Origin: a virus
UHGV virus genome: UHGV-0356621
Strand: one strand, 5' to 3'
Length of the DNA stretch: 43,895 bases
The translations under genes were made by a program, and so were the position numbers. The stretch's first letter is position 1. Every line of letters starts with the position of its first letter. The notes below the pieces were generated by a model. It was not told the DNA's origin and ran no database searches. It was given only the letters and a program-made list of their open reading frames with translations. This document shows, piece after piece, positions 23,820 to 37,602 of the stretch.

Positions 23820-24077
23820 CTACTTCGTTTTTGCTTCCGCTCTTTTACGGCGGCGCTCTTCTTTCTTCTCGGCGTTTGCCATGTCCATGAATGCCTGCAT
23901 GATCGAGTTCCTCATCATGTAACTGACAAAGTGATGATTGACGCAGCCGTTGAGACGGAGTTGCTCGCCAAACTGATCAACCGAGGCCAGCACTTCCATC
24001 ATGCCCTTCTCGCCTTTCATGAACTCTGAGAAGTCGCGCCCCGCTCTGGAGGCGCATTCAATGACACGATCACTCAT
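23820..24077 (-). CDS. Hypothetical protein
   Basis: 85-aa ORF upstream of terS; ATG verified; ATGA overlap with the KilA-N gene stop. Confidence 0.45.
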   Translation of the reverse strand: MSDRVIECASRAGRDFSEFMKGEKGMMEVLASVDQFGEQLRLNGCVNHHFVSYMMRNSIMQAFMDMANAEKKEERRRKRAEAKTK

Positions 24078-24571
24078 CCCGGAAGCCCGGGGATCGTAAT
24101 CTGCAGCTGGTTAGCCAGGGAGTTAATCTCAGCGACCAACACTGGCTTCGTATAGCGCCATGCCGCCAGCCCTTGTCCGCAGAAACTCGCCATGTCTTTC
24201 TTCTGGTCAAACTCATGACATTTCATGTTGAGCTGCGCACTTAAGCTGTTGCGATGCTGAAGTTCTCCGGTGAAGTAGTCATCGAGGACTTTATAGGCCG
24301 CGTACTTGAACCCGGGGTTTAACCAAGCCGCATAATCGTAAGCAACAAACTTCCCGCCATATGTTCCACCGTGTACACCGCGCTCAGTAAAAACCACAGA
24401 TTCGTGGTTTTTCTCCAGCTCGGCTAAGAACTCTTTGGTCTGCTTGTTTCGCAGGTAGTGGTAAGGCGATTCAGATTCACTTTTGCCACTGGCTTTCCAC
24501 ATATCGGTGAGGCAGATCATGCCGTCTTCCCCGACACGGATTGGTTGATTGAAGAGGGTTAATGATTTCAT
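24074..24571 (-). CDS. KilA-N domain protein
   Basis: N-terminus MKSLTLFNQPIRVGEDGMICLTDMWKASGK fits the KilA-N/APSES-type pattern; ATG at 24571. Confidence 0.5.
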   Translation of the reverse strand: MKSLTLFNQPIRVGEDGMICLTDMWKASGKSESESPYHYLRNKQTKEFLAELEKNHESVVFTERGVHGGTYGGKFVAYDYAAWLNPGFKYAAYKVLDDYFTGELQHRNSLSAQLNMKCHEFDQKKDMASFCGQGLAAWRYTKPVLVAEINSLANQLQITIPGLPG

Positions 24572-24718
24572 TTCGCTGATACCTTTTGGTGGTTGAGCCT
24601 GTTCTCGTAGATACGGGCAGCCCAAGAGCGGTCAGCGTTACCACTGCCCTATCTCAAGCTCTACCCCGAAAGGCTCTTGGTTGATATGCGCACGAGAATG
24701 CGCGTGTTTACTTCAGGC

Positions 24719-24747
24719 ATAAAAAAGCCCCGCTATTGCGAGGCTCT
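24719..24747 (-). terminator. Rho-independent terminator at the end of the lysis cassette
   Basis: Minus strand AGCCTCGC-AATA-GCGGGGCT followed by TTTTTT, overlapping the Rz1 stop. Confidence 0.55.
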
Positions 24748-24996
24748 TGATGATTCGATTTTCCTGATTGCTGCCTTATCCAGATTGCACTGCCCCAGCG
24801 CCGTATAGAGCTGAGTGTTTAACTCCAGACTTGCCTGCCACGTGAACGGAACCGCCATTCCGGGGATCGGCGTGTCAGCTGTCAGGTCAGCGCTTATCGG
24901 CACCACCGGGGCCGGAACGTAAACTGTCTGCGTATTCCCGCAGGCTGTCAGCAGCGGCAGAAGGAACAAGCTGGTTAGCGCACGGATCGCCTTCAA
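24733..24996 (-). CDS. Rz1: o-spanin (Rz1-like outer-membrane lipoprotein), overlapping Rz in another frame
   Basis: Lipoprotein signal ...KAIRALTSLFLLPLLTAC with lipobox; Pro-rich mature part; probable TTG start at 24996 (track start 25080 is GTG). Confidence 0.5.
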   Translation of the reverse strand: MKAIRALTSLFLLPLLTACGNTQTVYVPAPVVPISADLTADTPIPGMAVPFTWQASLELNTQLYTALGQCNLDKAAIRKIESSRASQ

Positions 24997-25273
24997 GCGC
25001 CTGCCTGATGTAGACAATGCGCGTCTCGCCTTTATGGGCCAGTTCGTTCTTTGCATTCTGGGTAGCCTGTGAGATGTCACGGATGAGGTTCATCGTGGTG
25101 ATCACGTTGTTGGTGATCGCCTCTGATTTGTCTGCCCTGACCGTTTCTTTATCGCGCTGGTCTTTGTAGGCGATGGCGTTGTTGCGGTAGTGGTTCACGA
25201 AGAACGCCAGCACGCCGATTAACGCCAGCACCAGCAACTGCATCCAGTAACGTTTAACCAGCGCGCCAATCAT
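24887..25273 (-). CDS. Rz: i-spanin (Rz-like)
   Basis: N-terminal transmembrane segment then VNHYRNNAIAYKDQRDK, matching lambda Rz (VNHYRDNAITYKAQRDK); ATGA overlap with the endolysin stop. Confidence 0.75.
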   Translation of the reverse strand: MIGALVKRYWMQLLVLALIGVLAFFVNHYRNNAIAYKDQRDKETVRADKSEAITNNVITTMNLIRDISQATQNAKNELAHKGETRIVYIRQALEGDPCANQLVPSAAADSLREYADSLRSGPGGADKR

Positions 25274-25710
25274 GACAGGAACAGAGCGCGCTCCGCCTCC
25301 CGGCGACGTGTCAGCCCATTCAGCACCTTCCCACCAGCTTTATTCCAGCGCAGGAACTCATCGGCTGCACCAGCGTAATCACCAGCGTTGAGTTTTCGCA
25401 ATAGCGTAGATGTCGACAATGACCTAGCACCGAGGTTGTACGTGAACGACACCAGAGCATCGAATTGCCCCTGAGTCAGACCGACTTTAACCAGGCGGGA
25501 CACGTCACTTTCGTAGCTGACCAGTCCGGTTTTCAGCAGGCGATCCGCAGTTTCCTGCTTAATCGTCATCCCGGCGCGGATCGGTTTACCGTCGACAGGC
25601 TGAGTCCAGCCATAGCCGATCGTCCACACTCCGACGCTGTCCTGGTAGGCAGTGAGCTTGCAACCTTCGAACTGCTTGATCAGGGCAATGCCTTTATCAC
25701 TGGTTTGCAT
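25270..25710 (-). CDS. R: Endolysin, T4-lysozyme-like (glycoside hydrolase family 24)
   Basis: [28 protein letters not shown] matches the lysozyme catalytic motif; ATG at 25710 with GGGAG RBS (track start 25737 is TTG). Confidence 0.85.
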
Positions 25711-26017
25711 CGTCAACTCCCGCCTTTTTTGCTGCAAGTTTTTTAATCAGATTGCCGATCGAATCGGTGCCGATGTATCCAATAAAGACGCTGGCTATGT
25801 AGGCGAGGTTGCTGCTCAGGCCGATAAAGTCCAGAAAGTCACGAACGAACCAGGCAATCATCGCGCACATCAGCGCATCAATTAGCGTTTTTGTTACCGC
25901 GCCGCCGTTATAGCGACCACGCAGATACGCCATGATAAAAGCCAGCATTGCACCAATACCCTGCTCCTTGGCGGCAAGTAGCGCAGCGATGAAATCTTGT
26001 TTGTATGGCATTTTCAT
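25697..26017 (-). CDS. S: Holin, lambda S family, with dual-start MKM motif
   Basis: [40 protein letters not shown]... is close to lambda S over about 105 aa; strong GGAGGTGAGG RBS; Met1/Met3 dual start as in lambda holin/antiholin. Confidence 0.9.
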
Positions 26018-26199
26018 AGGCCTCACCTCCGATTTTCCGGATGGTGCTGTGTGTGTTTGTAGGGGAAAGGCCGTCAGACTCTGATTGCTACATGGCATCT
26101 GAAAATGATATCTGCGGCCTGCAATAAAAAAGCCCACGGCGCGGTGGGCAATAGAGGGTAGTGCGTTGAGCTTTTGCTCTTATGGTCCTGGTAGGTATT

Positions 26200-26274
26200 T
26201 GGCGGGACAGGAAGGATTCGAACCTTCGACCATTCGGTTAACAGCCGAACGCACAACCGCTGTGCTTCTGACCC
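26200..26274 (-). tRNA. tRNA-like gene, putative tRNA-Asn (anticodon GUU), 75 nt with encoded CCA
   Basis: Minus-strand cloverleaf by eye: acceptor GGGTCAG/CTGTCCC (one T:T mismatch), D stem GCAC/GTGC, anticodon stem TTCGG/CCGAA with loop CTGTTAA, T arm GAAGG-TTCGAAT-CCTTC, discriminator G, CCA. Position 8 is A rather than the usual U. Confidence 0.55.
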
Positions 26275-26277
26275 TGA

Positions 26278-26308
26278 AACGAAAAAGCCCCGCACGATGG
26301 CGGGGCTT
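26278..26308 (-). terminator. Rho-independent terminator between Q and the tRNA (candidate tR')
   Basis: Minus strand GCCCCGC-CATCGT-GCGGGGC followed by TTTTTCG. Confidence 0.65.
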
Positions 26309-26371
26309 GGAATTTATTCATGTTACACACAACAATGGCAACATATACGAATTAGTTTGCTCATTTGTTCA

Positions 26372-26869
26372 TTAAATTGCAAGCACGTTGTGTGATTTAT
26401 TTGCAATTTTCCTCACATTTTCGCGATCGTTAAACGCATTTTGAAGCGGTTGGTATAAACAGAACAATGAAGCATTGATTATTTGCTTCACCTCTCTACG
26501 GATTGTCGAGATGCTTGGGTGTTTGTACTGATTGCCGCCACGCGTCTTCATAAGGCGAGGCTTACTTACTGCATGCTGCCATGATGCAATTCGGATCTCG
26601 CTGGAGTTGCAGACGTAGTAGGCGAAGATAACCCGCCAGGCATTTTCATCCACATTCTTCAGATAGTGACGAATGACAGCATCAATGAGCATCCCGTCAT
26701 CATCACTACATACCGGTCGTGATGCTTGCTGGGGCTCGACGGTAGCCATGAATCTGGCAATCATGTTGATCATCGCTTTATCAATCTTGCCGGTCTGGCA
26801 CCATGCGCCCCACAACTGGAGCCACTGGTCTACCCATTGATGCTGGTCGTTGGTTAATTCCAGTTTCAT
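26372..26869 (-). CDS. Q: Late-gene antitermination protein Q (Phage_antitermQ-type)
   Basis: Motifs LWGAWCQTG, VCSDDDGMLID and FAYYVCN resemble the WGAW / CCDDDAM / YY signature of this Q family; located just before terminator, tRNA and lysis genes. Confidence 0.7.
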   Translation of the reverse strand: MKLELTNDQHQWVDQWLQLWGAWCQTGKIDKAMINMIARFMATVEPQQASRPVCSDDDGMLIDAVIRHYLKNVDENAWRVIFAYYVCNSSEIRIASWQHAVSKPRLMKTRGGNQYKHPSISTIRREVKQIINASLFCLYQPLQNAFNDRENVRKIANKSHNVLAI

Positions 26870-26981
26870 TATGCGGCTTCCTTCTGTGGCTGGTTGGTTT
26901 TGGTCTGGCTGTGCTTTGCTACTGGCGGCATGCTGGCGCGCTTAACGCTTTCTGCCTGGTACTGGAGGAGGTCGGCGTGGT

Positions 26982-27623
26982 TCATGCGGACTCCTTCTGC
27001 TTTGGTCCGCGATATTCACCATACAGAGGTGCTCTTCCTCTTGGCCTGGTATGCCTGTGGGTTACTTTGGGAGAAAAAAGCGCATCCTCTACATTCATTC
27101 CATTTTTTAGTCGACGCTTGATGGATGTTTCTGATACTGAAACGCGAGGATCCCTTGACCATTCTGTGGCGGTTTTCGTTTCGCCATTAAAAGTTATGGC
27201 TGTGCGTCCTTTTTTTGTGTGCTCAGGGATATGCACTCGAGATCGCATGACATTACACGCCCTGCACAGCACCCTAAGATTTGAGTCCGCATTGTTATCA
27301 ACAACCTCATCAATGTGATCAATATGCGCGGTTTTCCATGTGACCTCCTTGCCGCATTTTTCGCATGGTGGAAGTGTTTCTCCATAACGGTCGTAAACAA
27401 CTTTTCGGTGCTCATATACGCAACCATTCGCCATTGATAGTGGGTGATCAGGAATTTTGAGCATTTGATATCCTTTCGCATTTTTATGCCTGAATTTCCC
27501 TTTACCGTTTTTTGTGAGTTCGTAGGTCCCGTAGCGCATCATTCGGAAGTAGTGCATTTGACAGATACCCTTCCCTGGGTAGTGTTTGCATTCACGATCA
27601 CAACCTTCAACTTTGCATTTCAT
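26982..27623 (-). CDS. HNH homing endonuclease
   Basis: Cys-rich N-terminus and HNH motif HIDHIDEVVDNNADSNLRVLCRACN; C-terminal DNA-binding-like segment; ATGA overlap with NinG. Confidence 0.75.
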   Translation of the reverse strand: MKCKVEGCDRECKHYPGKGICQMHYFRMMRYGTYELTKNGKGKFRHKNAKGYQMLKIPDHPLSMANGCVYEHRKVVYDRYGETLPPCEKCGKEVTWKTAHIDHIDEVVDNNADSNLRVLCRACNVMRSRVHIPEHTKKGRTAITFNGETKTATEWSRDPRVSVSETSIKRRLKNGMNVEDALFSPKVTHRHTRPRGRAPLYGEYRGPKQKESA

Positions 27624-28267
27624 GCTGCACTCTCCTGTAATTTTTGACGGCGCTTCATCAGTGCACTGGCCCTGCGGGAAAAAATTGCTTTCACCCGCTT
27701 CAGGTAGGTAACGTCAAACCGGCGTGGGGCATTGTCAGCTTCGAGCCGCTCTACGCGCTCAAGGCCAATGCGATTAACCAGGCGGATCCGGTACTCGACA
27801 GCATTACCGCTCAACTGTCGGTTACAGCGGGTGCAAGCGGAGTGGACGTTAAACACGTTGAATTTGAGGTGTGAGGCAGCGCCGCGTGAACGGTAATGGC
27901 TGGCGTCAATGGCGCTGCCAGTCAGGTAATTGCTTTTTCCCATAAGTGGATTGCCGCAACTGACACATGGCTTACCTTCATCGCGGATCCGGATGTAGCG
28001 ATTGAAAGCTGATTGAGCCTCTTTATCCCACTGAGATTTAGACTTGAGTGACTCACGCTTGGCCTTACGGCGTTTGCGCCCGGCCTTCTCTGCCTCCTTC
28101 TGCTCTTTGATGCGCTTCGCCGCGGCCTTAACCTTCTCCTTTTCGCGCTCTTCCATCGCGAGGATTGCGCCGTGCTCCGGGCTGCACCAGCGGATCCGGA
28201 TATCGTGGAATTTCGGCACGAAGTATTCCCCGCATACTTTGCACTTACGGCGGGATGGTTTACGCAT
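27620..28267 (-). CDS. ninG: NinG (Rap) recombination protein
   Basis: [11 protein letters not shown]...WCSPEHG N-terminus, central basic K/E/R stretch, and ...SGN.V.YR..L..RIG..V matching lambda NinG; ATG at 28267. Confidence 0.8.
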
Positions 28268-28928
28268 GTTCACCGCCTTGCACCTTTACCAGCGTGAGGT
28301 TTCCGCAGAACACGGCGCCGGTGTCGATGTACATCTGGTTGGCATACTTCAGGGGCTGGCGCGCTGGGGTGTGGCCGAAGATAAACAGATCAGCACCGGC
28401 TATCGTCGATACAATGCCGTCCTGTGCGTCGCTAACCCTCTCACGATTCCAGATGACCATATCTTTCGGGATGGGCTTATCGAACGCATATTCGTTATGC
28501 GGGTAGTCAGCGTGGCAGATAACGATTTTACGCTCAGCGGTAACCAGCTCGATGACGAGTGGCAGCTCAGCTGCTTTGTGAACCAGAGCCTTAGCCAGCA
28601 CTTCTTTGTCATAGTCGAGATTGAAGAACCAGCCGCCACCATTTGCCAACCAGTGATTGACGTTTCCATACTCCGATAGCCCATCAATCATCATCTGCTC
28701 ATGGTTGCCACGAACAGCACGGAACCACGGCATAGTAATCAGATCCAGGCATTCGACGTTTTCCGCGCCGCGGTCAACAAGGTCTCCAACCGAAATCAGC
28801 AAATCGCACGCAGGGTCGAACGAAACTTTTTCGAGCTCATTCATCAGCAGGGTGTAGCACCCATGCAGATCGCCGACAACGAAGATATTGCGCCAGTCAG
28901 CGCCATTAATGCGTTGATACATGCTCAT
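28260..28928 (-). CDS. Ser/Thr protein phosphatase (lambda NinI-like)
   Basis: GDLHG, GDLVDRG and GNHE metallophosphatase motifs; ATG at 28928 after GAGGAGAAAA. Confidence 0.85.
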
Positions 28929-29095
28929 GCGGATTTTCTCCTCGCCGCGAGACGCAGCCATTTCTGATCCACCAGGCGGGCGGTGTAGCCCTTCAGTGTC
29001 GGGATGTCGGACGGCTTAACCGCGGGCTTGCGCTGGCGGCGCGCCGGAACGCGGAAGATTTCGTTTGTGATGACGCGTGCGAGAGGGTTATTCAT
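28925..29095 (-). CDS. Small hypothetical nin-region protein (56 aa), translationally coupled on both sides
   Basis: [27 protein letters not shown]...; its ATG overlaps the NinB stop and its TGA overlaps the phosphatase ATG (ATGA overlaps). Below the 60-aa track cutoff. Confidence 0.45.
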
Positions 29096-29529
29096 GCAAG
29101 CCTCCCAAAGTAATCGCCACGATAACGGACATCGCGAAGTTGGATGTTCTGGCTGACGGCGAAAGCCTGGGTGTACTCAATCAGGCTGTTCATCCTTTTG
29201 ATCCCCATCGATGAGGTGCTTTCGCGAATTGCCACCAATTCTCCCTCAAGTCCGGCAATAACCTTCCCCCGCCCGCCAGTGGCAATGGAGTGACCGGAAA
29301 CCAAAATTGATTTCCACGACGGAAGCGACCACGCAGAGCCAGCCCACTGAATGCGATGCTTTGCCAGATCGCCGCAAAGCGCGTGGAACAGTGAATTCTG
29401 AGGAAGAGTGCGCTTAGGGTCGGCAAAACTCACCACGAGCGGGAAATCTGCGTTTACAGGCTGCTTGTTGATGTAGTCGATGAGGTTGCGGCGAACCTGC
29501 TCATCACGTAGGTAGAATTTGATACTCAT
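29092..29529 (-). CDS. ninB: NinB (Orf) recombination protein
   Basis: PKRTLPQNSLFHALCGDLAKH...W.G..W.L.SWK resembles the lambda NinB RSLDQN...LGDV core; ATG at 29529 with GGAGGTG RBS. Confidence 0.7.
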   Translation of the reverse strand: MSIKFYLRDEQVRRNLIDYINKQPVNADFPLVVSFADPKRTLPQNSLFHALCGDLAKHRIQWAGSAWSLPSWKSILVSGHSIATGGRGKVIAGLEGELVAIRESTSSMGIKRMNSLIEYTQAFAVSQNIQLRDVRYRGDYFGRLA

Positions 29530-29740
29530 ACGCCACCTCCGAGAGGTAACGCAGAATGCAGAAAATCGCAGGTGCATTTCTGCATCTGTGACAAGGTGAG
29601 GATTTCAGATTGTGGTCGCATTTAAGTCCCCTTAAATGCGAAGAAGTCACCGGAGTTGTTCAGGCTCCGATGACTTAATTATGGATGGATGATTATTGGA
29701 AATCAAACGTTGCTTGACGTTTAGTTATGCGTCGAATGGG

Positions 29741-29995
29741 TTAGGTATTATGTGATACCACTGTTGGCGAACTGAGTGGGTAGGCGACGCCGATAGGGTG
29801 CTTGCCATTGCAGATAAAACACCGCATCTCGCTAAGCACCTGAGGAGAGGTAGTGATCGTCTTCGGATGATCGTCCTCGCTCAATGCATCACGGAACGCT
29901 ACCGCAACAACCTTCCCGCCGAAAGCCTCCATGTGGGCATGCACTGGCGGCTCCTTGCCGTCTTCAAACTCAATGACGAAAGTTAACTTACCCAT
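29741..29995 (-). CDS. Hypothetical protein
   Basis: 84 aa; ATG verified; TAATG overlap with the upstream gene. Confidence 0.4.
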   Translation of the reverse strand: MGKLTFVIEFEDGKEPPVHAHMEAFGGKVVAVAFRDALSEDDHPKTITTSPQVLSEMRCFICNGKHPIGVAYPLSSPTVVSHNT

Positions 29996-30576
29996 TACGC
30001 CTCCTGCTGCGGTGCTGCTGGCAGCGATTTAATCCAAGCGGCTGCCAGAAGACGACTCCACGCATCCTTAGAATCCTCAGCGCCGTAATCAATAATCGAG
30101 TCGAATTCGTCTAGAATGGCTATCGTAGGTTCAACCGGCACCGCAACCCAACCATCCGGAATCACCGGAGAGTTGAGTTGTTCGGAATTACCGAACGACT
30201 GAAGCATGGCGGCGCGGCAGGCGTTCCAGCCGACAGCTTTTCCGTGTTCAAACGCGCTGTCAAAGTCATCATCAATTTCCATCGCAGCGGGCACAGATAC
30301 CGGCGCTGGCGGGGCGGTGTAGAGAGTACGAGTGTCCTCACCGTCGCTGCTAAGGCGAATCATTTCATCCTCGTCTACGTCAGACCAGGTATCATCGCTG
30401 TTGCCGTAGACTTGATGCACAGCCTCCGCTTCGAGCGATGCCAGCGCGATACGCGCATTATTAATCAGGAGGCTATCAGCAGGAGATAAAACAACATGAG
30501 CGTTACCATCCGCATCAATTTCAGAATTCGTAATTTTTCTGAACAGCTTTGCCAGTTCTTTGGTAATATTGCTCAT
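29995..30576 (-). CDS. Hypothetical acidic protein
   Basis: 193 aa; ATG with GGTGAGGA RBS. Confidence 0.45.
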   Translation of the reverse strand: MSNITKELAKLFRKITNSEIDADGNAHVVLSPADSLLINNARIALASLEAEAVHQVYGNSDDTWSDVDEDEMIRLSSDGEDTRTLYTAPPAPVSVPAAMEIDDDFDSAFEHGKAVGWNACRAAMLQSFGNSEQLNSPVIPDGWVAVPVEPTIAILDEFDSIIDYGAEDSKDAWSRLLAAAWIKSLPAAPQQEA

Positions 30577-30579
30577 GGG

Positions 30580-31011
30580 TTAGTCCTCACCTTTCTGTTG
30601 CACTACCGGAACCGATAAATCGACGCACCAGGAGATAACGCCGAATTGATCATCGTTCTGCGCTTCACCCCAAACGTAATATTTTGATCCTGGCCGACCC
30701 ATTGCCGGGTCAAATACTTCTATGCCGCGTTCTGCCGTTAACGACATCAGAATCTGATGCAGGCCGCCTTTGATGTTCAGTGACGGAACGGTCAGGAAGT
30801 AAATAAACCCGTAAAGCAATTCGGCCTTGCGCTGGCTTCCGTAAAAATACGGGATTTTGTAATAATCCAGCGCGTCGTCGAGCCAGTCTGTTTTGTCGTG
30901 GAATTTCTGATGCCAGCGTTCCACTACCTCATCGACAGGTTGACCGGCAACCATTGCAACGCAGGTAGCCATGCAGGTGTTAAATGTTGGCTGCATTTGA
31001 TGTTGAAGCAT
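30580..31011 (-). CDS. Hypothetical protein with conserved Cys/His (possible thiol hydrolase fold, speculative)
   Basis: 143 aa; N-terminal FNTCMATCVAMV and later GGLHQ; ATG at 31011. Confidence 0.4.
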   Translation of the reverse strand: MLQHQMQPTFNTCMATCVAMVAGQPVDEVVERWHQKFHDKTDWLDDALDYYKIPYFYGSQRKAELLYGFIYFLTVPSLNIKGGLHQILMSLTAERGIEVFDPAMGRPGSKYYVWGEAQNDDQFGVISWCVDLSVPVVQQKGED

Positions 31012-31724
31012 CACTCCCCCTTACCGATGCCAGCGGCGCGGTCTATGCGTTCGATTTCAGCCAGAATTAAAGCCCCTGCTTTTACCAGGTTGCGACGGCG
31101 GGCATTTGGCTTCCACCATGAAGCATCCCAAGGCCACCCCCACGGCTTGCCACCATTGCGGTTAACAGTTCCTGTTTCGTTTATGTAACAAACCGCCGCC
31201 ATTGCCAGTTCCCCGTTGCAGTGTTCGTCATCATGCTCAGGCGTCCATCCCTCAACTGATTGATGGCGTTGACGCTCTGCAATTACTGACTGAACGGCAT
31301 TGGATAGCGATTTCACACCCTGCGCACGCACTTCAGCCAGGAAAGCGTCGGTGGCTGGGGTTTTGGCATTCTCCAATAATGCTATTGAATCCTGAGCGTC
31401 ACAAAGACGTAATAGTGCGTCCATTTGCTCGCCATCAGCGTCATAGCTGAATAGACCATGATCATCATGATGTGCTTCCATATTTTCTGAGGCCTGCAGT
31501 ATTCCAGACTTCAGCCCAGCATTCTCCACAGCCAGCGCCGCGCACTTGGCCTCAAGGTTATCAATCGTGATTCCAGCAGAACGACACTCCCGCAACGCCG
31601 TTTCTAGTTTTGATTCAAGTTCACCGAACTTACGGACAAGATATTCAGCGTTTGTTTCGTTAACCTTTAAATCTCGTGGAATGCACTTGCCACGCAGAAA
31701 ACCTTCCATCTCAAATAATTTCAT
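31011..31724 (-). CDS. Hypothetical phage protein with Trp-rich C-terminal domain
   Basis: 237 aa from the ATG at 31724 (strong GGAGGG RBS); C-terminus KPWGWPWDASWWKP...RNLVKAGALILAEIERIDR looks like a conserved phage domain I cannot name with confidence. Confidence 0.45.
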   Translation of the reverse strand: MKLFEMEGFLRGKCIPRDLKVNETNAEYLVRKFGELESKLETALRECRSAGITIDNLEAKCAALAVENAGLKSGILQASENMEAHHDDHGLFSYDADGEQMDALLRLCDAQDSIALLENAKTPATDAFLAEVRAQGVKSLSNAVQSVIAERQRHQSVEGWTPEHDDEHCNGELAMAAVCYINETGTVNRNGGKPWGWPWDASWWKPNARRRNLVKAGALILAEIERIDRAAGIGKGE

Positions 31725-32065
31725 ACCCCTGCCCTCCCCCAAACCATCAATACTCGCTTCATCGCCGCGCTGTTGCGGCACTCCTGGCAGATCACGTTTG
31801 CCTCTGTACGCTGCACCAGCTTCGAATTTCCCTTCGGCATAGCCGGGATTGTTTCTGGTGCGTATTTCATGCCGTAATCGGTCAGCCGATAAAGCCGCTG
31901 TCCGTGCTTGCCTTCGAACTCGATCAAGCCGTCTGCCAGCAGCGTGCTCACCGTTCCGGATATCTTTTTGGTGGTCATGCCGATCATGCTGGCAATACGA
32001 GCACTGTTCAGGCACGGGTTGTTACGCAGGGCTGCCAGCACCTGCTCACGGATTGTTATGTTCAT
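31721..32065 (-). CDS. Hypothetical DNA-binding (winged-helix-like) protein
   Basis: 114 aa from the ATG at 32065; LAALRNNPCLNSARIASMIGMTTKKISGTVSTLLADGLIE resembles a winged helix; coupled to P upstream and to the next gene downstream. Confidence 0.4.
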   Translation of the reverse strand: MNITIREQVLAALRNNPCLNSARIASMIGMTTKKISGTVSTLLADGLIEFEGKHGQRLYRLTDYGMKYAPETIPAMPKGNSKLVQRTEANVICQECRNSAAMKRVLMVWGRAGV

Positions 32066-33685: not shown

Positions 33686-33867
33686 CCTGTTGCTCCTTGC
33701 GGCTGAGTGCGCCGCGAAATTTGCGTAAGCGACGTTCGACACAGTTAAACCTCCTGCGCCTGGCGTTTTGGATTAGCGTTTGTCATAATGACCTCGCAAT
33801 TGACTGACGTTTGTTGCACCAGAAAGCCGGTTCTGTTCGCGCAGACCGGCTTTTCCCCTTTCTACGT

Positions 33868-34089
33868 TCATGCTTCAAAATCTCCCTTCTCTCCATCCCT
33901 GTTCGAAATCAGGATGGCAAGCAGCAGCGACATGTTCGGTACCAGGTTTTCCCGCCACCGGCTGACTGTGGATTTGTTGATGCCAGCTACTTCGGCTATC
34001 CGGGCGGTACCCAGATCAGCGATTTGCCGCTGCACCCAGCTCTCAATTCGTCGTGCCTCCGCTTTGTTGCGTGTCGTTAAGGTCTCCAT
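33868..34089 (-). CDS. cII: CII-like transcriptional activator
   Basis: NKAEARRIESWVQRQIADLGTARIAEVAGINKSTVSRWRENLVPNMSLLLAIL aligns with lambda CII (NEALRIESALLNKIAMLGTEKTAEAVGVDKSQISRWKRDWIPKFSMLLAVL). Confidence 0.8.
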   Translation of the reverse strand: METLTTRNKAEARRIESWVQRQIADLGTARIAEVAGINKSTVSRWRENLVPNMSLLLAILISNRDGEKGDFEA

Positions 34090-34116
34090 TTGCGATACTT
34101 CCTCTGAATTAATTGG

Positions 34117-34350
34117 TTATGCCGCGGTATTTCGCGGCGAGGCAAAAACCAGGCTCTCTTTGAGCACCGGATCCTGGCGGTGAAATTTTTTTGTGGCATC
34201 TTCGATAGCCGATGCCATTTCTGGTGATGCGCGACGATTTCCGTAAGCGATCTGGTCCAGATAACCTGGCGTTGTGTTTGCCAGTTTTGCGAGCTGCGCC
34301 CATTCGTCTGTAGTGGCGCCCTTACGCCAGCGATGCAGTTCAGTACTCAT
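34117..34350 (-). CDS. cro: Cro-like repressor (YdaS/Cro-type HTH)
   Basis: 77-aa HTH protein divergent from cI across an operator region and followed by cII. Confidence 0.6.
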   Translation of the reverse strand: MSTELHRWRKGATTDEWAQLAKLANTTPGYLDQIAYGNRRASPEMASAIEDATKKFHRQDPVLKESLVFASPRNTAA

Positions 34351-34382
34351 TGGTGTCTCCGGTTGAGTCGTTTGATTTGGAG

Positions 34383-34448
34383 TTTAGCGTTATGCTAAAT
34401 ACTACGCAAGCAACATTTAGCAATTTGCACATTTATCATTTTGCTAAA
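34383..34448. promoter_or_regulatory. OR-like operator cluster with divergent promoters, 17-bp sites TTTAGC-N5-GCTAAA
   Basis: Perfect site 34383-34399 TTTAGCGTTATGCTAAA; second site 34432-34448 TTTATCATTTTGCTAAA; weaker half-site at 34416-34432. Confidence 0.6.
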
Positions 34449-34466
34449 AGCAGTAACAATGCAGGG

Positions 34467-35144
34467 ATGGAAAATAAAGAAATCAGAAAAGCCAACCTGG
34501 AAGCGCTGTATGAGAAGCGCCAGCACGAGTCTGGAATGACAAAGGCGCAGTTCGCCGAGCTCATCGAGACAAGTCCGGCTGCGCTTAGCCAGCTGCTGGG
34601 ACCAAACCCTCATCGCAATATCGGCGATAAGATGGCTCGCAAAATTGAAAGTGCGCTTGATCTGCCTTTTGGTTGGATGGATGTTTTACACACCAGTGAA
34701 GAACCTTCGAACGTTGCATTTCGAGGACTGAACGAGACAAAAGGAAGTTATCCTGTAATCAGCTGGGTAAGCGCGGGGCAATGGATGGAAGCTGTAGAAC
34801 CTTATCACCGAAGAGCGATAGATCGCTGGTATGACACGACTGTTGACTGCTCAGAAGATTCATTCTGGCTGGACGTTAAAGGGGATTCTATGACCTCCCC
34901 GGCTGGACTGAGCATACCCGAGGGAGCAGCGATACTTGTTGATCCTGAAGTCGAGCCGCGCAACGGAAAGCTGGTTGTCGCGAAGCTAGAAGGCGATAAC
35001 GAAGCGACCTTTAAGAAGCTTGTAATCGATGCCGGCAGACGCTTCCTAAAGCCCCTTAACCCCGCATATCCAATGCTAGAAATTAATGGAAACTGCAAAA
35101 TCATCGGCGTTGTGGTTGATGCCAAAATACTAAACATCCCATAA
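34467..35144 (+). CDS. cI: CI repressor (N-terminal HTH, C-terminal S24 LexA-like autopeptidase domain)
   Basis: HTH segment MTKAQFAELIETSPAALSQL; C-terminal GDSMTSP (Ser nucleophile) and later Lys; ATG at 34467. Confidence 0.85.
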   Translation: MENKEIRKANLEALYEKRQHESGMTKAQFAELIETSPAALSQLLGPNPHRNIGDKMARKIESALDLPFGWMDVLHTSEEPSNVAFRGLNETKGSYPVISWVSAGQWMEAVEPYHRRAIDRWYDTTVDCSEDSFWLDVKGDSMTSPAGLSIPEGAAILVDPEVEPRNGKLVVAKLEGDNEATFKKLVIDAGRRFLKPLNPAYPMLEINGNCKIIGVVVDAKILNIP

Positions 35145-35163
35145 CCTCACGCAAAACCCCTCA

Positions 35164-35189
35164 AGCCCGCCATCGCGCGGGCTTTTTTA
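35164..35189 (+). terminator. Rho-independent terminator after cI
   Basis: GCCCGC-CATCGC-GCGGGC followed by TTTTTT. Confidence 0.7.
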
Positions 35190-35227
35190 CGTCCCGAATT
35201 CCTTCGCTGTAAATTTTTAATCGCTTA

Positions 35228-35302
35228 TTAATCAATACGCTAAATAAAACCATTCAACAATTTAGCATTTTGCTATTGCGCATAATTTAGCATCACGCTA
35301 AA
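35228..35302. promoter_or_regulatory. OL-like operator cluster / candidate leftward early promoter
   Basis: Sites 35261-35277 TTTAGCATTTTGCTATT and 35286-35302 TTTAGCATCACGCTAAA (perfect), plus a weaker site ending GCTAAA at 35244; same consensus as the OR sites. Confidence 0.55.
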
Positions 35303-35862
35303 TTTACCCCATCGAAACGAAACATCGACAGCTGAGCGAAGTTAGCCAGCGGCGGACAGCAAGTCGCCTGCTTTTTTAACAAATCAGACTGAGTGACAGG
35401 CAAGCCGTAGCTCTCCTGGCAAAAAGAAATGGCACCCGATGGGATCGAGGTAAGCACTGAGTCCGTATGCGTACGGTAGGTGTAGAGGACCACGCTGCGA
35501 TGAGCTGATAAGTCACTCAATTTGAAGCGCTCCGATGATGGGGCGCTGATTCAACTTAGAGGAGTGATTCCAATGAAGAACTAAAGCGGACAGACCGCAG
35601 CCTAAAGGCAATGCAGCAGTAATGATGCCGCCCTGAGTCGCCGAATGGCGAGCCTGTGTAGTGATGGGTCAAGGTTCTTATATCAAAACAAGCTCCGGTA
35701 AAGCAGCGCGAACGCCAGACGCGCACCGGTTATGAGCGGCGATGAGCGACAAGGTCTCAAGGGCATGTGCGCGGCCACTGCGAGAGTGTGGCGAAGTTTA
35801 CCAGCAGCTCTTTGCGAGGGGCTGACGGCAAATCTACTCCACTTATTTAAAAGAGACGGTAT

Positions 35863-36036
35863 ATGGATAATCAGGATAATGAGTTAAGAAAGGTTGTTCA
35901 GGAACTTGCTGATGAAGAAGGCATCAGCTTTTCCGATGCCCTAGATGTTTCGATTAAAGCGCTGCGTTATGAGGTAGAGCGCAGAAAATCGTTTAACGGT
36001 GAAGCTGCTTGTGATGGCTCTGCAATTACTTCTTAG
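35863..36036 (+). CDS. Small acidic hypothetical protein (57 aa)
   Basis: ORF MDNQDNELRKVVQELADEEGISFSDALDVSIKALRYEVERRKSF...; first ORF downstream of the OL-like operators; 3' end overlaps the convergent gene by 11 bp. Below the track cutoff. Confidence 0.35.
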   Translation: MDNQDNELRKVVQELADEEGISFSDALDVSIKALRYEVERRKSFNGEAACDGSAITS

Positions 36037-36304
36037 CCAAGTACCAAGAGGTGTCTGCGGCTTCGGAAACCAGTACGTAATAGCTTTGCTTTACACTACT
36101 AGCTATACCTCTGACTTCCTCTCTAACGTTATATGCAGTTGATGTTTTTACGGTTGTATATTCAGCTGTTGGGAGGTTAAACCAAGTGCCATTACCATCC
36201 TGTATCTCACGCGAATAACCCTTTGCTTTCATCTTTTCATGAAGATTTTCATAGTCTTCAGAATCAGCGCCGCGCAACTCAACTCGAACAATATATCTTG
36301 CCAT
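36026..36304 (-). CDS. Hypothetical protein (92 aa), AT-rich gene antisense to the early-left operon
   Basis: ORF MARYIVRVELRGADSEDYENLHEKMKAKGY... with AGGAAT RBS; DNA is visibly AT-rich; the longer track ORF (to 36595) is an upstream extension. Confidence 0.5.
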   Translation of the reverse strand: MARYIVRVELRGADSEDYENLHEKMKAKGYSREIQDGNGTWFNLPTAEYTTVKTSTAYNVREEVRGIASSVKQSYYVLVSEAADTSWYLAKK

Positions 36305-36530
36305 AAGAAGATTCCTATATTGACTGTGGAATGAGCAACATATCAGTTTCCTTTGACTGTGGAAAGCAAAGGGACACGGGCCGGGCGTGGATAAAAATCC
36401 CGGCAATAACTGGAATGTTTTGTAGTGCAGTGAATTGCAGCTGCATCGACGGCAACCGGAAGATAAGCACCCGGCGCTGCACCACAAAGCATTTCTCCCG
36501 CATCCGCGGGTAACGACAGAGGGTAAAAGG

Positions 36531-36827
36531 ATGATCGACGACATCAAGCGCATCGACTCAATGATAAATGTGCTTCGAAATATGAAACAGGACATTAAGC
36601 GCCAGCAGAAACTAAGTGAAATAAACAGCTTAGACCTTACGCCAAAGCAAGCTCAAAAGCGCAATGCCGATGCTGGCTGGATTGCGATGGAACAGATTAA
36701 GCGCCGGCATGAGCTGCACGCTCTGTCAGTTGAGCTTGGGTTCGCTGAACGCCGGGAAAGTTATGCTCCATTTGAATTAACTGACGGGTGGCACCGATTC
36801 AACCACAAGCCGCGCGAACCTCAATAG
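36531..36827 (+). CDS. Hypothetical early protein
   Basis: 98 aa from the ATG at 36531 after an AAAAGG RBS. Confidence 0.4.
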   Translation: MIDDIKRIDSMINVLRNMKQDIKRQQKLSEINSLDLTPKQAQKRNADAGWIAMEQIKRRHELHALSVELGFAERRESYAPFELTDGWHRFNHKPREPQ

Positions 36828-36980
36828 CCGCCTAGCCAGCGGCTTTTTCATACCTGGAGTCATTTACGAGTGGCTTAGTTATGACAACCGGCGGCCATCC
36901 ATCGCCCATTGAAACACATAAAAGTGCGTTGAAGTCTTGTATTAACCGTTCCGTTCGCCGCGATAAGGCTAAGAGGATTT

Positions 36981-37241
36981 ATGAGCACTGTAAAGATGAT
37001 TGGCGCCAGTCCACTAACTGGAACAATTTTCGAAGGACGACTTAACCCAGTCAAAAGCTGCTGGGTTGGAAAGAAAACAGATGTTACCGATATGGTTCTG
37101 AGAGCTACCGCTGACCACCTCTACGTTGTGAAAAAGGAATATGCGTTCCCGTTACGAGACGGAAAGGTGGCTGTGTTGAGCATGCATATTTTCGATGAAT
37201 TGCCAGAGCGCTTCATTGGTGGCACGGAGCATGGCGAATGA
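36981..37241 (+). CDS. Hypothetical early protein
   Basis: 86 aa; stop overlaps the next ATG (ATGA). Confidence 0.4.
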   Translation: MSTVKMIGASPLTGTIFEGRLNPVKSCWVGKKTDVTDMVLRATADHLYVVKKEYAFPLRDGKVAVLSMHIFDELPERFIGGTEHGE

Positions 37242-37399
37242 TGACAGTCACCCACAACGGCAAGCAGTACACCGCCAAAAAGCTCAACGATAACGAGTGG
37301 CAGCTGACGTCCGTATCGGCACCGCGTGAAAAGCTGACGCTTAACCGCTGGCAGATGCATATGGCTGGCCTCCTGGTACAGGTAGAGGTGAAGGTATGA
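37238..37399 (+). CDS. Small hypothetical protein (53 aa)
   Basis: ATGA overlaps at both ends link it to the neighbouring ORFs; below the track cutoff. Confidence 0.35.
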   Translation: MMTVTHNGKQYTAKKLNDNEWQLTSVSAPREKLTLNRWQMHMAGLLVQVEVKV

Positions 37400-37602
37400 T
37401 TGGAATGCACTACGGCACCGCATCAGTGCCACGTAGCGAGGTTTTACCTGGCACAATGCTGCAACACCACGGCAAAACTTATCGCGCCTCTGCGAACGTT
37501 GAGAAAGGCCTGTACGCCTTCAACATCTTCGAAAAAACCATCATCAAAAGTGATTCCGTCGTTGTGCTGCTGAATGAGCGCGGCGAGCCGATGGTTCACT
37601 GA
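37396..37602 (+). CDS. Hypothetical early protein
   Basis: 68 aa, translationally coupled to the preceding small ORF. Confidence 0.35.
   Translation: MIGMHYGTASVPRSEVLPGTMLQHHGKTYRASANVEKGLYAFNIFEKTIIKSDSVVVLLNERGEPMVH

Follow-up and report, generated by a model that had tools for sequence, protein, structure and literature searches.

The virus genome UHGV-0356621, analyzed here over its whole stretch of 43,895 nt (the window), carries a cI repressor gene with the same palindrome on either side, which raises the question of whether these repeats are the operators of a lambda-type CI/Cro switch, how they are laid out, and what they say about the immunity of related prophages. Based on motif statistics, gene content, and comparison with related loci, we consider it highly likely that this set of sites represents the operators and promoters of such a switch, within the H-19B repressor family.

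Genes and repeated sites around cI

The cI gene (34467-35144, plus strand) encodes a 225-aa repressor with an N-terminal helix-turn-helix (HTH; Pfam HTH_3) and a C-terminal S24 self-cleaving domain (Peptidase_S24), with homology extending over the whole of lambda CI (3bdn, E 5e-32); lambda A111-G112, S149, and K192 align with A103-G104, S141, and K183 here. The cI start at 34467 is supported by divergent relatives, in which in-frame stops precede it, and corrects the publicly annotated one: the start codon in public records falls within the site designated OR1 below, and CI as translated from 34467 was absent, by exact look-up, from the protein collection searched because public gene calls start at an upstream ATG. 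An intrinsic terminator kept in relatives follows cI (35163-35190, plus strand; 8-bp stem with 6 G-C pairs, then TTTTTT). Divergent from cI are a cro-like gene (34117-34350, minus strand; 77 aa, HTH, weak Pfam HTH_3 and phrog_35 matches) and, downstream of it in the PR operon, a cII-like activator gene (33868-34089, minus strand; 73 aa, Pfam Phage_CII E 1.2e-12), after which come the replication genes O and P. The genes downstream of PL, all on the plus strand, are kil, gam, and recombination genes.

Across the full window, TTTAGC-N5-GCTAAA had two exact matches in 43.9 kb, at 34383-34399 (TTTAGCGTTATGCTAAA) and 35286-35302 (TTTAGCATCACGCTAAA), and none in 100 dinucleotide-preserving shuffles. 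This bears out both positions in the initial annotation, which had described perfect palindromes and weaker copies nearby, flanking cI in the positions of lambda OR and OL. The gene order cII-cro / cI agrees with that placement, and four weaker copies could be located, two on each side, giving six 17-bp sites with three on each side of cI. Within the window, no site with ≤2 mismatches falls outside the two intergenic regions beside cI, where weaker copies lie at 34432-34448 (1 mismatch), 35228-35244 (2), and 35261-35277 (2). The remaining copy, at 34416-34432, has 3 mismatches and taken alone scores at background level (25 such sites vs. 17.5 expected), yet it is kept in relatives. Independently of the motif scan, a repeat finder grouped five of the six sites into one family (D1). 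The perfect sites also belong to a 27-nt inverted repeat (I1; 34383-34409 / 35276-35302, 85% complementarity) that holds TTGCG-N17-TAAA(C/T)T, pointing to cro and to the kil-gam operon, so that they sit within near-identical, outward-facing promoter-operator cassettes. Rfam searches, whether at the gathering threshold or relaxed to E ≤10, gave no relevant match, a weak AgvB match over the operators (E 1.7) being taken as noise.

Layout and conservation of the proposed operator sites

The two perfect palindromes are the O1-type sites, lying over PR and PL. On the cro side, OR1 (34383-34399) covers the spacer and 4 nt of the -10 of the predicted PR (34381-34409, minus strand; -35 TTGCGT at 34409-34404, 17-nt spacer, -10 TAAACT at 34386-34381). 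Across 39 distinct relatives it hardly varies, even at its centre, and its start consistently lies 84 nt before the cI ATG (83 in two loci); the TTG of the PR -35 and TAAANT are likewise kept in the 39 distinct OR regions. OR2 (34416-34432, TTTAGCAATTTGCACAT) joins a good left half to a weak right half, and its centre falls at -43 relative to the predicted start of PRM, which by analogy would be the position of lambda OR2. OR3 (34432-34448, TTTATCATTTTGCTAAA) has one base in common with OR2 and covers the -35 and spacer of the predicted PRM (34432-34460, plus strand; -35 TTTATC at 34432-34437, 17-nt spacer, -10 AACAAT at 34455-34460). The half-sites of OR3 are kept in relatives while its centre is variable, and in the PRM -10 the A at position 2 and the T at position 6 are kept in all relatives. 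The predicted PRM start is the A of the cI ATG, which would make the cI mRNA leaderless, and no conserved Shine-Dalgarno was found before this ATG among the aligned relatives.

On the kil-gam side, OL1 (35286-35302) covers the spacer and 4 nt of the -10 of the predicted PL (35276-35304, plus strand; -35 TTGCGC at 35276-35281, 17-nt spacer, -10 TAAATT at 35299-35304), the mirror image of PR in the inverted repeat, with conserved TTG and TAAATT. OL2 (35261-35277, TTTAGCATTTTGCTATT), a site almost invariant in relatives, ends in the two T with which the PL -35 begins, and OL3 (35228-35244, TTAATCAATACGCTAAA), 33 bp upstream of OL2, is kept in 62 distinct relatives. All three promoters were read from the sequence: a sigma-70 consensus scan of 33700-36200 returned no promoter above threshold, and PR and PL, each matching only 7/12 consensus positions, were thus placed by symmetry and conservation. 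As for CII, no lambda-type site for PRE was found on the plus strand near cII, and a TTGC-N6-TTGC match to such a site at 34410-34423 (minus strand) was not conserved in relatives and was discarded as a chance occurrence.

Phylogenetic footprinting over about 90 related loci, yielding 39 distinct OR and 62 distinct OL regions, shows at the level of sequence that the sites and their spacing are under selection. At OR, half-sites were 98.4% conserved vs. 68% for the cro leader, with 30/35 invariant columns vs. 2/35; at OL, half-sites were 99.3% conserved vs. 71.6% between sites. For related prophages overall, conservation of the DNA between sites was 68-85%. Spacing was fixed at 33 + 16 bp in OR and 33 + 25 bp in OL, even when 0.8-2.3 kb of other genes lie between cI and OL. 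Matches with ≤1 mismatch in 487 kb of related loci were found 169 times in OR, 85 times at OL1, and once elsewhere.

Genuine operators could still follow a layout other than the three-plus-three of lambda, with OR2 non-functional, OR2 and OR3 serving as alternative positions of one dimer, or a fourth site present; we regard this as unlikely, if well worth considering. The right half of OR2 has 3/6 matches to the motif, but it fits GNNNAT in all 39 distinct relatives, next to an invariant left half. The overlap between OR2 and OR3 (1 bp, in a 16-bp register) and the unequal OR1-OR2 and OL1-OL2 distances (33 vs. 25 bp) would also fit another layout, although OR2 and lambda OR2 are placed alike with respect to PRM. 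Finally, four operator sites are attributed to H-19B OR in a review (PMC8065619), whereas here the DNA between OR1 and cro contains no fourth motif copy and is less conserved than the rest of the region. Within the three-plus-three layout that we favor, the base pair shared by OR2 and OR3 makes simultaneous occupancy as in lambda doubtful, and PRM activation and autorepression could, unlike in lambda, be mutually exclusive states of one DNA stretch.

Concerted operator change and the proposed switch

The prophages of Pantoea latae and P. alvi, whose CI is 37% identical to that of the window, have the same geometry at OR and OL, but in each of the ten half-sites with G5/C13 here, T5/A13 takes its place (TTTATC / GATAAA). 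Sequence comparison thus shows operators co-varying with the repressor family through a concerted G5/C13 to T5/A13 change, with H-19B as an intermediate. Conversely, some Pantoea and Biostraticola repressors only 53-58% identical to CI, with different recognition-helix residues, retain the same operators. The idea that CI residue 39 (Ala vs. Gln) sets G vs. T at operator position 5 was rejected because the repressors of three other Pantoea loci (L091/92/94) have Gln there but keep TTTAGC.

These patterns bear on which protein reads the sites. The Cro recognition helix, GYLDQIAYG with I or L at the sixth position, is invariant across the operator variants, and Cro very probably shares the CI sites. 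A stronger version, in which Cro or some other protein of phage or host is the main reader of the sites and CI acts elsewhere, draws on the match between GYLDQ(I/L)AYG, present in every family member, and the invariant outer bases TTTA..../....TAAA, and on the variation of CI recognition helices among phages with identical operators. We find this improbable: the position-5/13 switch follows the CI family while Cro is unchanged, the repeat finder detected no other repeated motif around cI, and, to our knowledge, every lambdoid phage studied has CI and Cro acting at common operators. Least credible is that the repeats owe their conservation purely to promoter function (-10, -35, A/T-rich UP-like DNA), around an incidental dyad with no repressor reader. 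The promoter-proximal halves of OR1 and OL1 do hold the predicted -10 (TAAA), from which part of their conservation could stem; the predicted PRM -35 coincides with the left half of OR3, and the PL -35 starts in the last bases of OL2. But the promoter-distal half-sites in the spacers are conserved equally, as is OL3, which lies 55 bp upstream of PL, the joint G to T / C to A switch in P. latae/alvi includes positions without a promoter role, and a perfect 6-N5-6 dyad is not expected twice by chance.

Returning to a CI/Cro switch, the locus combines the hallmarks of lambdoid systems, i.e., a self-cleaving HTH repressor, a divergent cro followed by cII and replication genes, both operator clusters, and operator co-variation. 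For such a switch, we infer CI binding, promoter positions, single-site roles, cooperativity, and looping. CI dimers would recognize the 17-bp dyad via the N-terminal helix-turn-helix, and in a lysogen, CI would silence both early operons by occupying OR1 (PR spacer and -10) together with OL1/OL2 (PL spacer, -10, and -35). From OR2, centred at -43 of PRM, CI would stimulate the weak leaderless cI promoter, while at high CI levels, occupancy of OR3 would cover the PRM -35 and turn cI off. With OL3 present and 0.9 kb between OL and OR, lambda-like looping may be possible. Upon DNA damage, RecA-stimulated self-cleavage at Ala103-Gly104 would release PR and PL, after which Cro would occupy the same sites and hold PRM off.

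The closest characterized system, judging from sequence, is the immunity region of the Stx1 phage H-19B, whose cI, cro, OR, and OL are said to have been treated by Neely & Friedman in 1998 and Shi & Friedman in 2001. A review (PMC8065619) cites experimental work on the operators and promoters of H-19B (Shi & Friedman 2001). The CI N-terminal domains are 51% identical over 75 aa, both proteins beginning MENK(E/D)IRK, and the Cro proteins are 61% identical over 77 aa. OR geometry is identical, with O1, a 16-bp gap, O2 overlapping O3 by 1 bp, and the same distance to the cI ATG, and the OL2-25 bp-OL1 cassette of H-19B has the same embedded -35 TTGC and -10 TAAA.T. The operators themselves (TTTACCATTTTGATAAA, TTTATCATATTGCGTAT, TTTATCCATTTGCTAAA, and TTTATCATTCCGATAAA in H-19B) differ, with half-sites TTTAGC/GCTAAA here vs. 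TTTA(T/C)C/G(A/C)TAAA, so that the two phages are probably heteroimmune; the CI recognition helices also differ (SPAALSQL here vs. SPSQLTQV). Overall, CI is 34% identical to that of H-19B, the C-terminal domain aligning poorly with several indels: it is lambda/P22-like here vs. 933W-type in H-19B, a type reported to be non-cooperative (PMC3202840). In H-19B, moreover, additional genes amounting to about 1.9 kb lie between cI and OL, and PL is followed by an N gene accompanied by a P22-like boxB.

Features shared with lambda are three 17-bp dyad operators in OR and three in OL, divergent PR/PRM, an OR2 centre about -42/-43 from a leaderless PRM start, O1 over the early promoters, and whole-length CI homology that includes the cleavage site and catalytic dyad. 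Lambda operators have an unrelated sequence (TATCACCGCCAGTGGTA), and the spacing differs (33/16 and 33/25 bp vs. 24/23 bp in lambda); unlike lambda, there is no rexAB, OL is only 0.9 kb from OR, and the early promoters are poor consensus matches. The C-terminal-domain DNA (window 34734-35127) is 77% identical to that of P22 C2, whereas the N-terminal DNA-binding domain and operators of P22 are unrelated, which makes the repressor a mosaic. P22 operators are 18 bp long and of different sequence.

Candidate immunity group and the PL leader

The motif search in related genomes proposed in the initial annotation marks out a candidate homoimmunity group. The same immunity type is present in 27 of 5426 complete E. 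coli genomes, in the Klebsiella phages KO-TP1 and Chronis, and in Enterobacter, Citrobacter, Atlantibacter, and Phytobacter prophages. KO-TP1 (PQ571297) and vB_Kpn_Chronis (MN013086) have the same module, with CI N-terminal domains 93% and 73% identical, respectively, and operators and geometry identical or near-identical to those here. Both phages are known from sequence and annotation; their operators are undescribed, and their annotated cI has an N-terminal extension through the operators. The expectation that operators would predict homoimmunity thus held insofar as a candidate group could be delimited, but not in full: the same operators being kept by CI proteins 53-58% identical, operator sequence alone may over- or under-predict homoimmunity.

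This hitherto undescribed immunity type occurs commonly among prophages of Enterobacteriaceae; in Pantoea and Biostraticola, the repressors are divergent. With its operator code, site layout, and likely promoters defined, superinfection-immunity groups become predictable from sequence, and TTTAGC, TTTAYC, and TTTATC/GATAAA form a natural series for studying specificity drift within the H-19B repressor family. The known workings of such switches are unchanged by these results.

Downstream of PL, we found no N-like ORF between 35303 and 37600 and recognized no lambda-type nutL, only a boxA-like TGCTTTTTTAACAA at 35369-35382; a gapless search for rrn boxA gave background matches only. N is not universal among lambdoid phages, HK022 being without it. 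A leader hairpin with a T-run (35351-35368) was considered as a terminator or boxB and rejected, its fold being no better than shuffles (z = -0.38); many relatives recombine inside this hairpin. As a speculation we hold to be rather doubtful, the PL operon may dispense with N, and a structured RNA at 35554-35797 could be a new cis-acting RNA conditioning long phage transcripts (e.g., processivity, Rho evasion, stability).

This 244-nt RNA lies in the PL operon, is supported by covariation, belongs to no Rfam family, and is unannotated. BLAST and a covariance model revealed no second copy in the window, and the RNA had no similarity to HK022 24000-32000, chosen as the likely immunity and put region; neither it nor the operator sequences had a match in the literature searched. 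The RNA is headed by a Shine-Dalgarno and a 3-codon mini-ORF, and in other phages it occurs in the leader of N-like genes or, where the late operon begins, directly after the Q gene and its terminator-like hairpin.

Operator-like sites around cI

Across the window's 43,895 bases, an exact pattern search found the dyad TTTAGC-N5-GCTAAA exactly twice, at 34383-34399 (TTTAGCGTTATGCTAAA; predicted operator OR1) and 35286-35302 (TTTAGCATCACGCTAAA; OL1), and in none of 100 dinucleotide-preserving shuffles: the perfect palindromes reported in the initial annotation are thus correct in both position and description. A mismatch search of the whole window confined all sites with ≤2 mismatches to the two intergenic regions flanking cI, and confirmed the weaker copies proposed nearby, i.e., 34432-34448 (OR3, one mismatch), 35228-35244 (OL3, two mismatches), and 35261-35277 (OL2, two mismatches). 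The copy at 34416-34432 (OR2) has three mismatches and is not significant alone, since 25 such matches were seen for 17.5 expected. Independently, a repeat finder placed five of the sites in one group, and detected 34383-34409 and 35276-35302 as a 27-nt inverted repeat with 85% complementarity.

The gene enclosed by these sites, cI (34467-35144, + strand), has a 225-aa product that matches Pfam HTH_3 and Peptidase_S24 and is homologous to the full-length lambda repressor (PDB 3bdn, E = 5e-32). Ala103-Gly104, Ser141, and Lys183 align with lambda Ala111-Gly112, Ser149, and Lys192, and on this alignment CI should be cleavable in the SOS response. The DNA of the C-terminal domain is 77% identical to P22 c2 while the N-terminal domain is of other origin, making the repressor a mosaic. 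Divergent from cI lies a cro-like HTH gene (34117-34350, − strand; 77 aa), beyond which come a Phage_CII gene (33868-34089, − strand) and, further along, replication genes of the O and P types. A strong intrinsic terminator (35163-35190) follows cI, and kil, a gam-like gene, and recombination genes lie to its right on the + strand. In public records, homologous cI genes (related loci L001, L002, and L003) begin at an ATG inside OR1, equivalent to 34392 here, giving proteins of 250-265 aa with at least 25 added residues that would have operator DNA as their coding sequence. Because this upstream frame contains stop codons in H-19B and in relatives from Pantoea and Biostraticola, and MENK(E/D)IRK is conserved, the start at 34467 (MENK) is supported.

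Conservation and co-variation with the repressor

The search of related genomes that the initial annotation had proposed recovered the module in 27 of 5426 complete E. coli genomes, in 80 IMG/VR contigs, in Klebsiella phages KO-TP1 (89% nucleotide identity; CI N-terminal domain 93% identical) and vB_Kpn_Chronis (CI N-terminal domain 73% identical), in Enterobacter, Citrobacter, Atlantibacter, and Phytobacter prophages, and, more distantly, in Pantoea and Biostraticola prophages. E. coli NCTC9040 (NZ_LR134247.1) matched the query of OR plus cI N-terminal domain at two places, and may harbour a pair of prophages that share this immunity.

Conservation of the majority base was evaluated over 39 distinct OR regions with TTTAGC sites: half-site columns were 98.4% conserved (30 of 35 invariant), the OR1-OR2 gap 85%, and the cro leader 68% (2 of 35 invariant). 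For OL (62 distinct regions), the corresponding values were 99.3% for half-sites, 90.9% for site centres, and 71.6% for the DNA between sites. The layout is equally constrained: OR1 starts 84 nt before the cI ATG in every locus except two (83 nt), OR3 always starts 35 nt before it, and the OL3-33-OL2-25-OL1 arrangement occurs in 88 of 91 loci, even with 0.8-2.3 kb of other genes between cI and OL. In related loci L004, L036, L063, and L091-L093, these extra genes (morons) sit between the cI terminator and OL, and the cassette is intact. Matches with ≤1 mismatch in 487 kb of related loci fell in OR (169) and OL1 (85), with a single one elsewhere. Departures from the dyad are themselves conserved, as the left half of OR3 is always TTTATC, the −35 of the predicted promoter PRM, and OL2 always ends in GCTATT, which starts the −35 of the predicted promoter PL.

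In prophages of Pantoea latae and P. alvi, CI is 37% identical, with recognition helix NPAQLSQV, and OR and OL geometry is the same. There, each of the 10 half-sites that has G5 or C13 in the window carries T5 or A13 instead (TTTATC / GATAAA), and half-sites already carrying T here are unchanged. If the site-reading protein had changed its specificity, one position would be expected to change together in all sites, left and right of cI; an explanation of the sites as promoter elements only does not predict this. Together with the half-site conservation and fixed layout, this concerted change argues, from sequence comparison, for the initial reading of the sites as operators. A simple residue-to-base code is limited by two observations: Pantoea and Biostraticola repressors that are 53-58% identical and have other helix residues, including Gln39, keep TTTAGC...GCTAAA, and Cro has an invariant recognition helix, GYLDQ(I/L)AYG, in every group (the window cro and related loci L003, L004, L076, L088, L091, L093, L095, and L096), spanning phages with different operator position 5/13 and different CI helices. 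Cro probably reads the outer operator bases common to all groups, and its invariant helix points to possible cross-reaction between the Cro proteins of different immunity types in the family.

Among characterised systems, the H-19B immunity region comes closest; its operators were reportedly described by Neely & Friedman (1998) and Shi & Friedman (2001). Site geometry is the same, and the H-19B CI N-terminal domain and Cro are 51% and 61% identical to the window proteins; however, its half-sites read TTTA(T/C)C / G(A/C)TAAA, its CI helix is SPSQLTQV, and its CI C-terminal domain is of the 933W type rather than lambda/P22-like. A review counts four operator sites in the OR of H-19B (PMC8065619), and the 933W-type CI C-terminal domain was reported to be non-cooperative (PMC3202840). 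Given the differences in half-site, recognition helix, and CI C-terminal domain, the window region falls outside the strict homoimmune H-19B group. Neither operator sequence was found in the searchable literature, and we therefore filed it as an undescribed specificity in the H-19B-like repressor family. Overall, the region would represent an immunity specificity within this family, with predicted operators and working like lambda, i.e., a standard kind of system with a previously undescribed specificity.

Predicted promoters and operator logic

Three promoters were predicted by sequence reading and checked in relatives: PR, toward cro (− strand; −35 TTGCGT 34409-34404, −10 TAAACT 34386-34381), PL, rightward (+ strand; −35 TTGCGC 35276-35281, −10 TAAATT 35299-35304), and PRM, toward cI (−35 TTTATC 34432-34437, −10 AACAAT 34455-34460), each with a 17-nt spacer. 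A consensus promoter scan reported none, and all three match the consensus poorly; they were placed by their symmetry and conservation. The PR spacer and four −10 bases lie under OR1, and OL1 is placed identically on PL. The last bases of OL2 form the TT of the PL −35, and OL3 is located 33 bp upstream of OL2. A search for a lambda-type CII site for PRE found none.

The cI transcript from PRM is predicted to be leaderless, starting at the A of the cI ATG; the lambda PRM transcript is also leaderless. The PRM −35 and spacer lie under OR3, and OR2 is centred at −43 of the predicted start, as is the site at which lambda CI, bound to OR2, activates PRM. Glu31, which is acidic, aligns with Asp38 of the lambda activation patch and may be its counterpart. 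CI binding, promoter positions, the order of site filling, and cooperativity are all predicted, and we infer OL-OR looping across 0.9 kb. The right half of OR2 is weak, and one base pair belongs to both OR2 and OR3; there may be no room for two dimers at once, so that the OR2/OR3 logic may differ from that of lambda. Spacing is 33 bp for OR1-OR2 vs 25 bp for OL1-OL2.

The PL leader and a structured RNA

Within the PL leader, a hairpin (35351-35368) is followed by TGCTTTTTTAACAA (notable stretch 35351-35382), which resembles the rrn boxA, TGCTCTTTAACAA; relatives carry GCTCTTTAAC/A at the equivalent place. The leader folds no better than shuffles, and in many relatives a recombination junction falls inside the hairpin. 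Downstream of PL (35303-37600, + strand), no gene was recognised as an N-like antiterminator. On the other side of cI, a perfect 6-bp G+C hairpin (GCCGCGAAATACCGCGGC, − strand) lies at 34121-34138, inside the last cro codons and 27 nt before cII, a position that corresponds to nutR/tR1 in lambda; there is no boxA nearby.

The PL operon also includes a 244-nt structured RNA (35554-35797, + strand), which starts with GGAG (Shine-Dalgarno) and a mini-ORF, ATG AAG AAC TAA, at 35573-35584. Its consensus fold, from 15 copies, comprises 38 pairs, 12 of them with compensatory changes: 96% of cells pair vs 22-44% with partners slid, and the covariation was reached by none of 500 shuffles. A G-U pair kept in 14 of 15 copies assigns the RNA to the + strand. 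The element matched no Rfam 15 family and is unannotated, and its sequence had no match in the searchable literature. A model search recovered it in 10 of 100 fetched loci, and it recurs in 18 E. coli genomes and in phages mEp213, vB_EcoS-733R5, and Providencia phage PSTCR7lys; there was no second copy in the window and no match in the part of HK022 compared (24000-32000). In an Stx2c phage and Hafnia phage yong1, the RNA sits between PL/boxA and an N-like gene; in mEp237 and the Klebsiella phage RothC, it immediately follows Q and a terminator-like hairpin. Such placement, where long operons under antitermination begin, points to an element that acts in cis on transcription or RNA fate. E. 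coli ABWA45 (NZ_CP022154.1) carries the element at two places.

Opposite the PL operon, an ORF at 36026-36310 (− strand, 94 aa) matches Pfam GhoS (E = 9e-5), the endoribonuclease antitoxin of GhoT/GhoS, as well as phrog_8894. Finally, a tRNA gene (26203-26274, − strand; 63.9 bits) lies among the late prophage genes.
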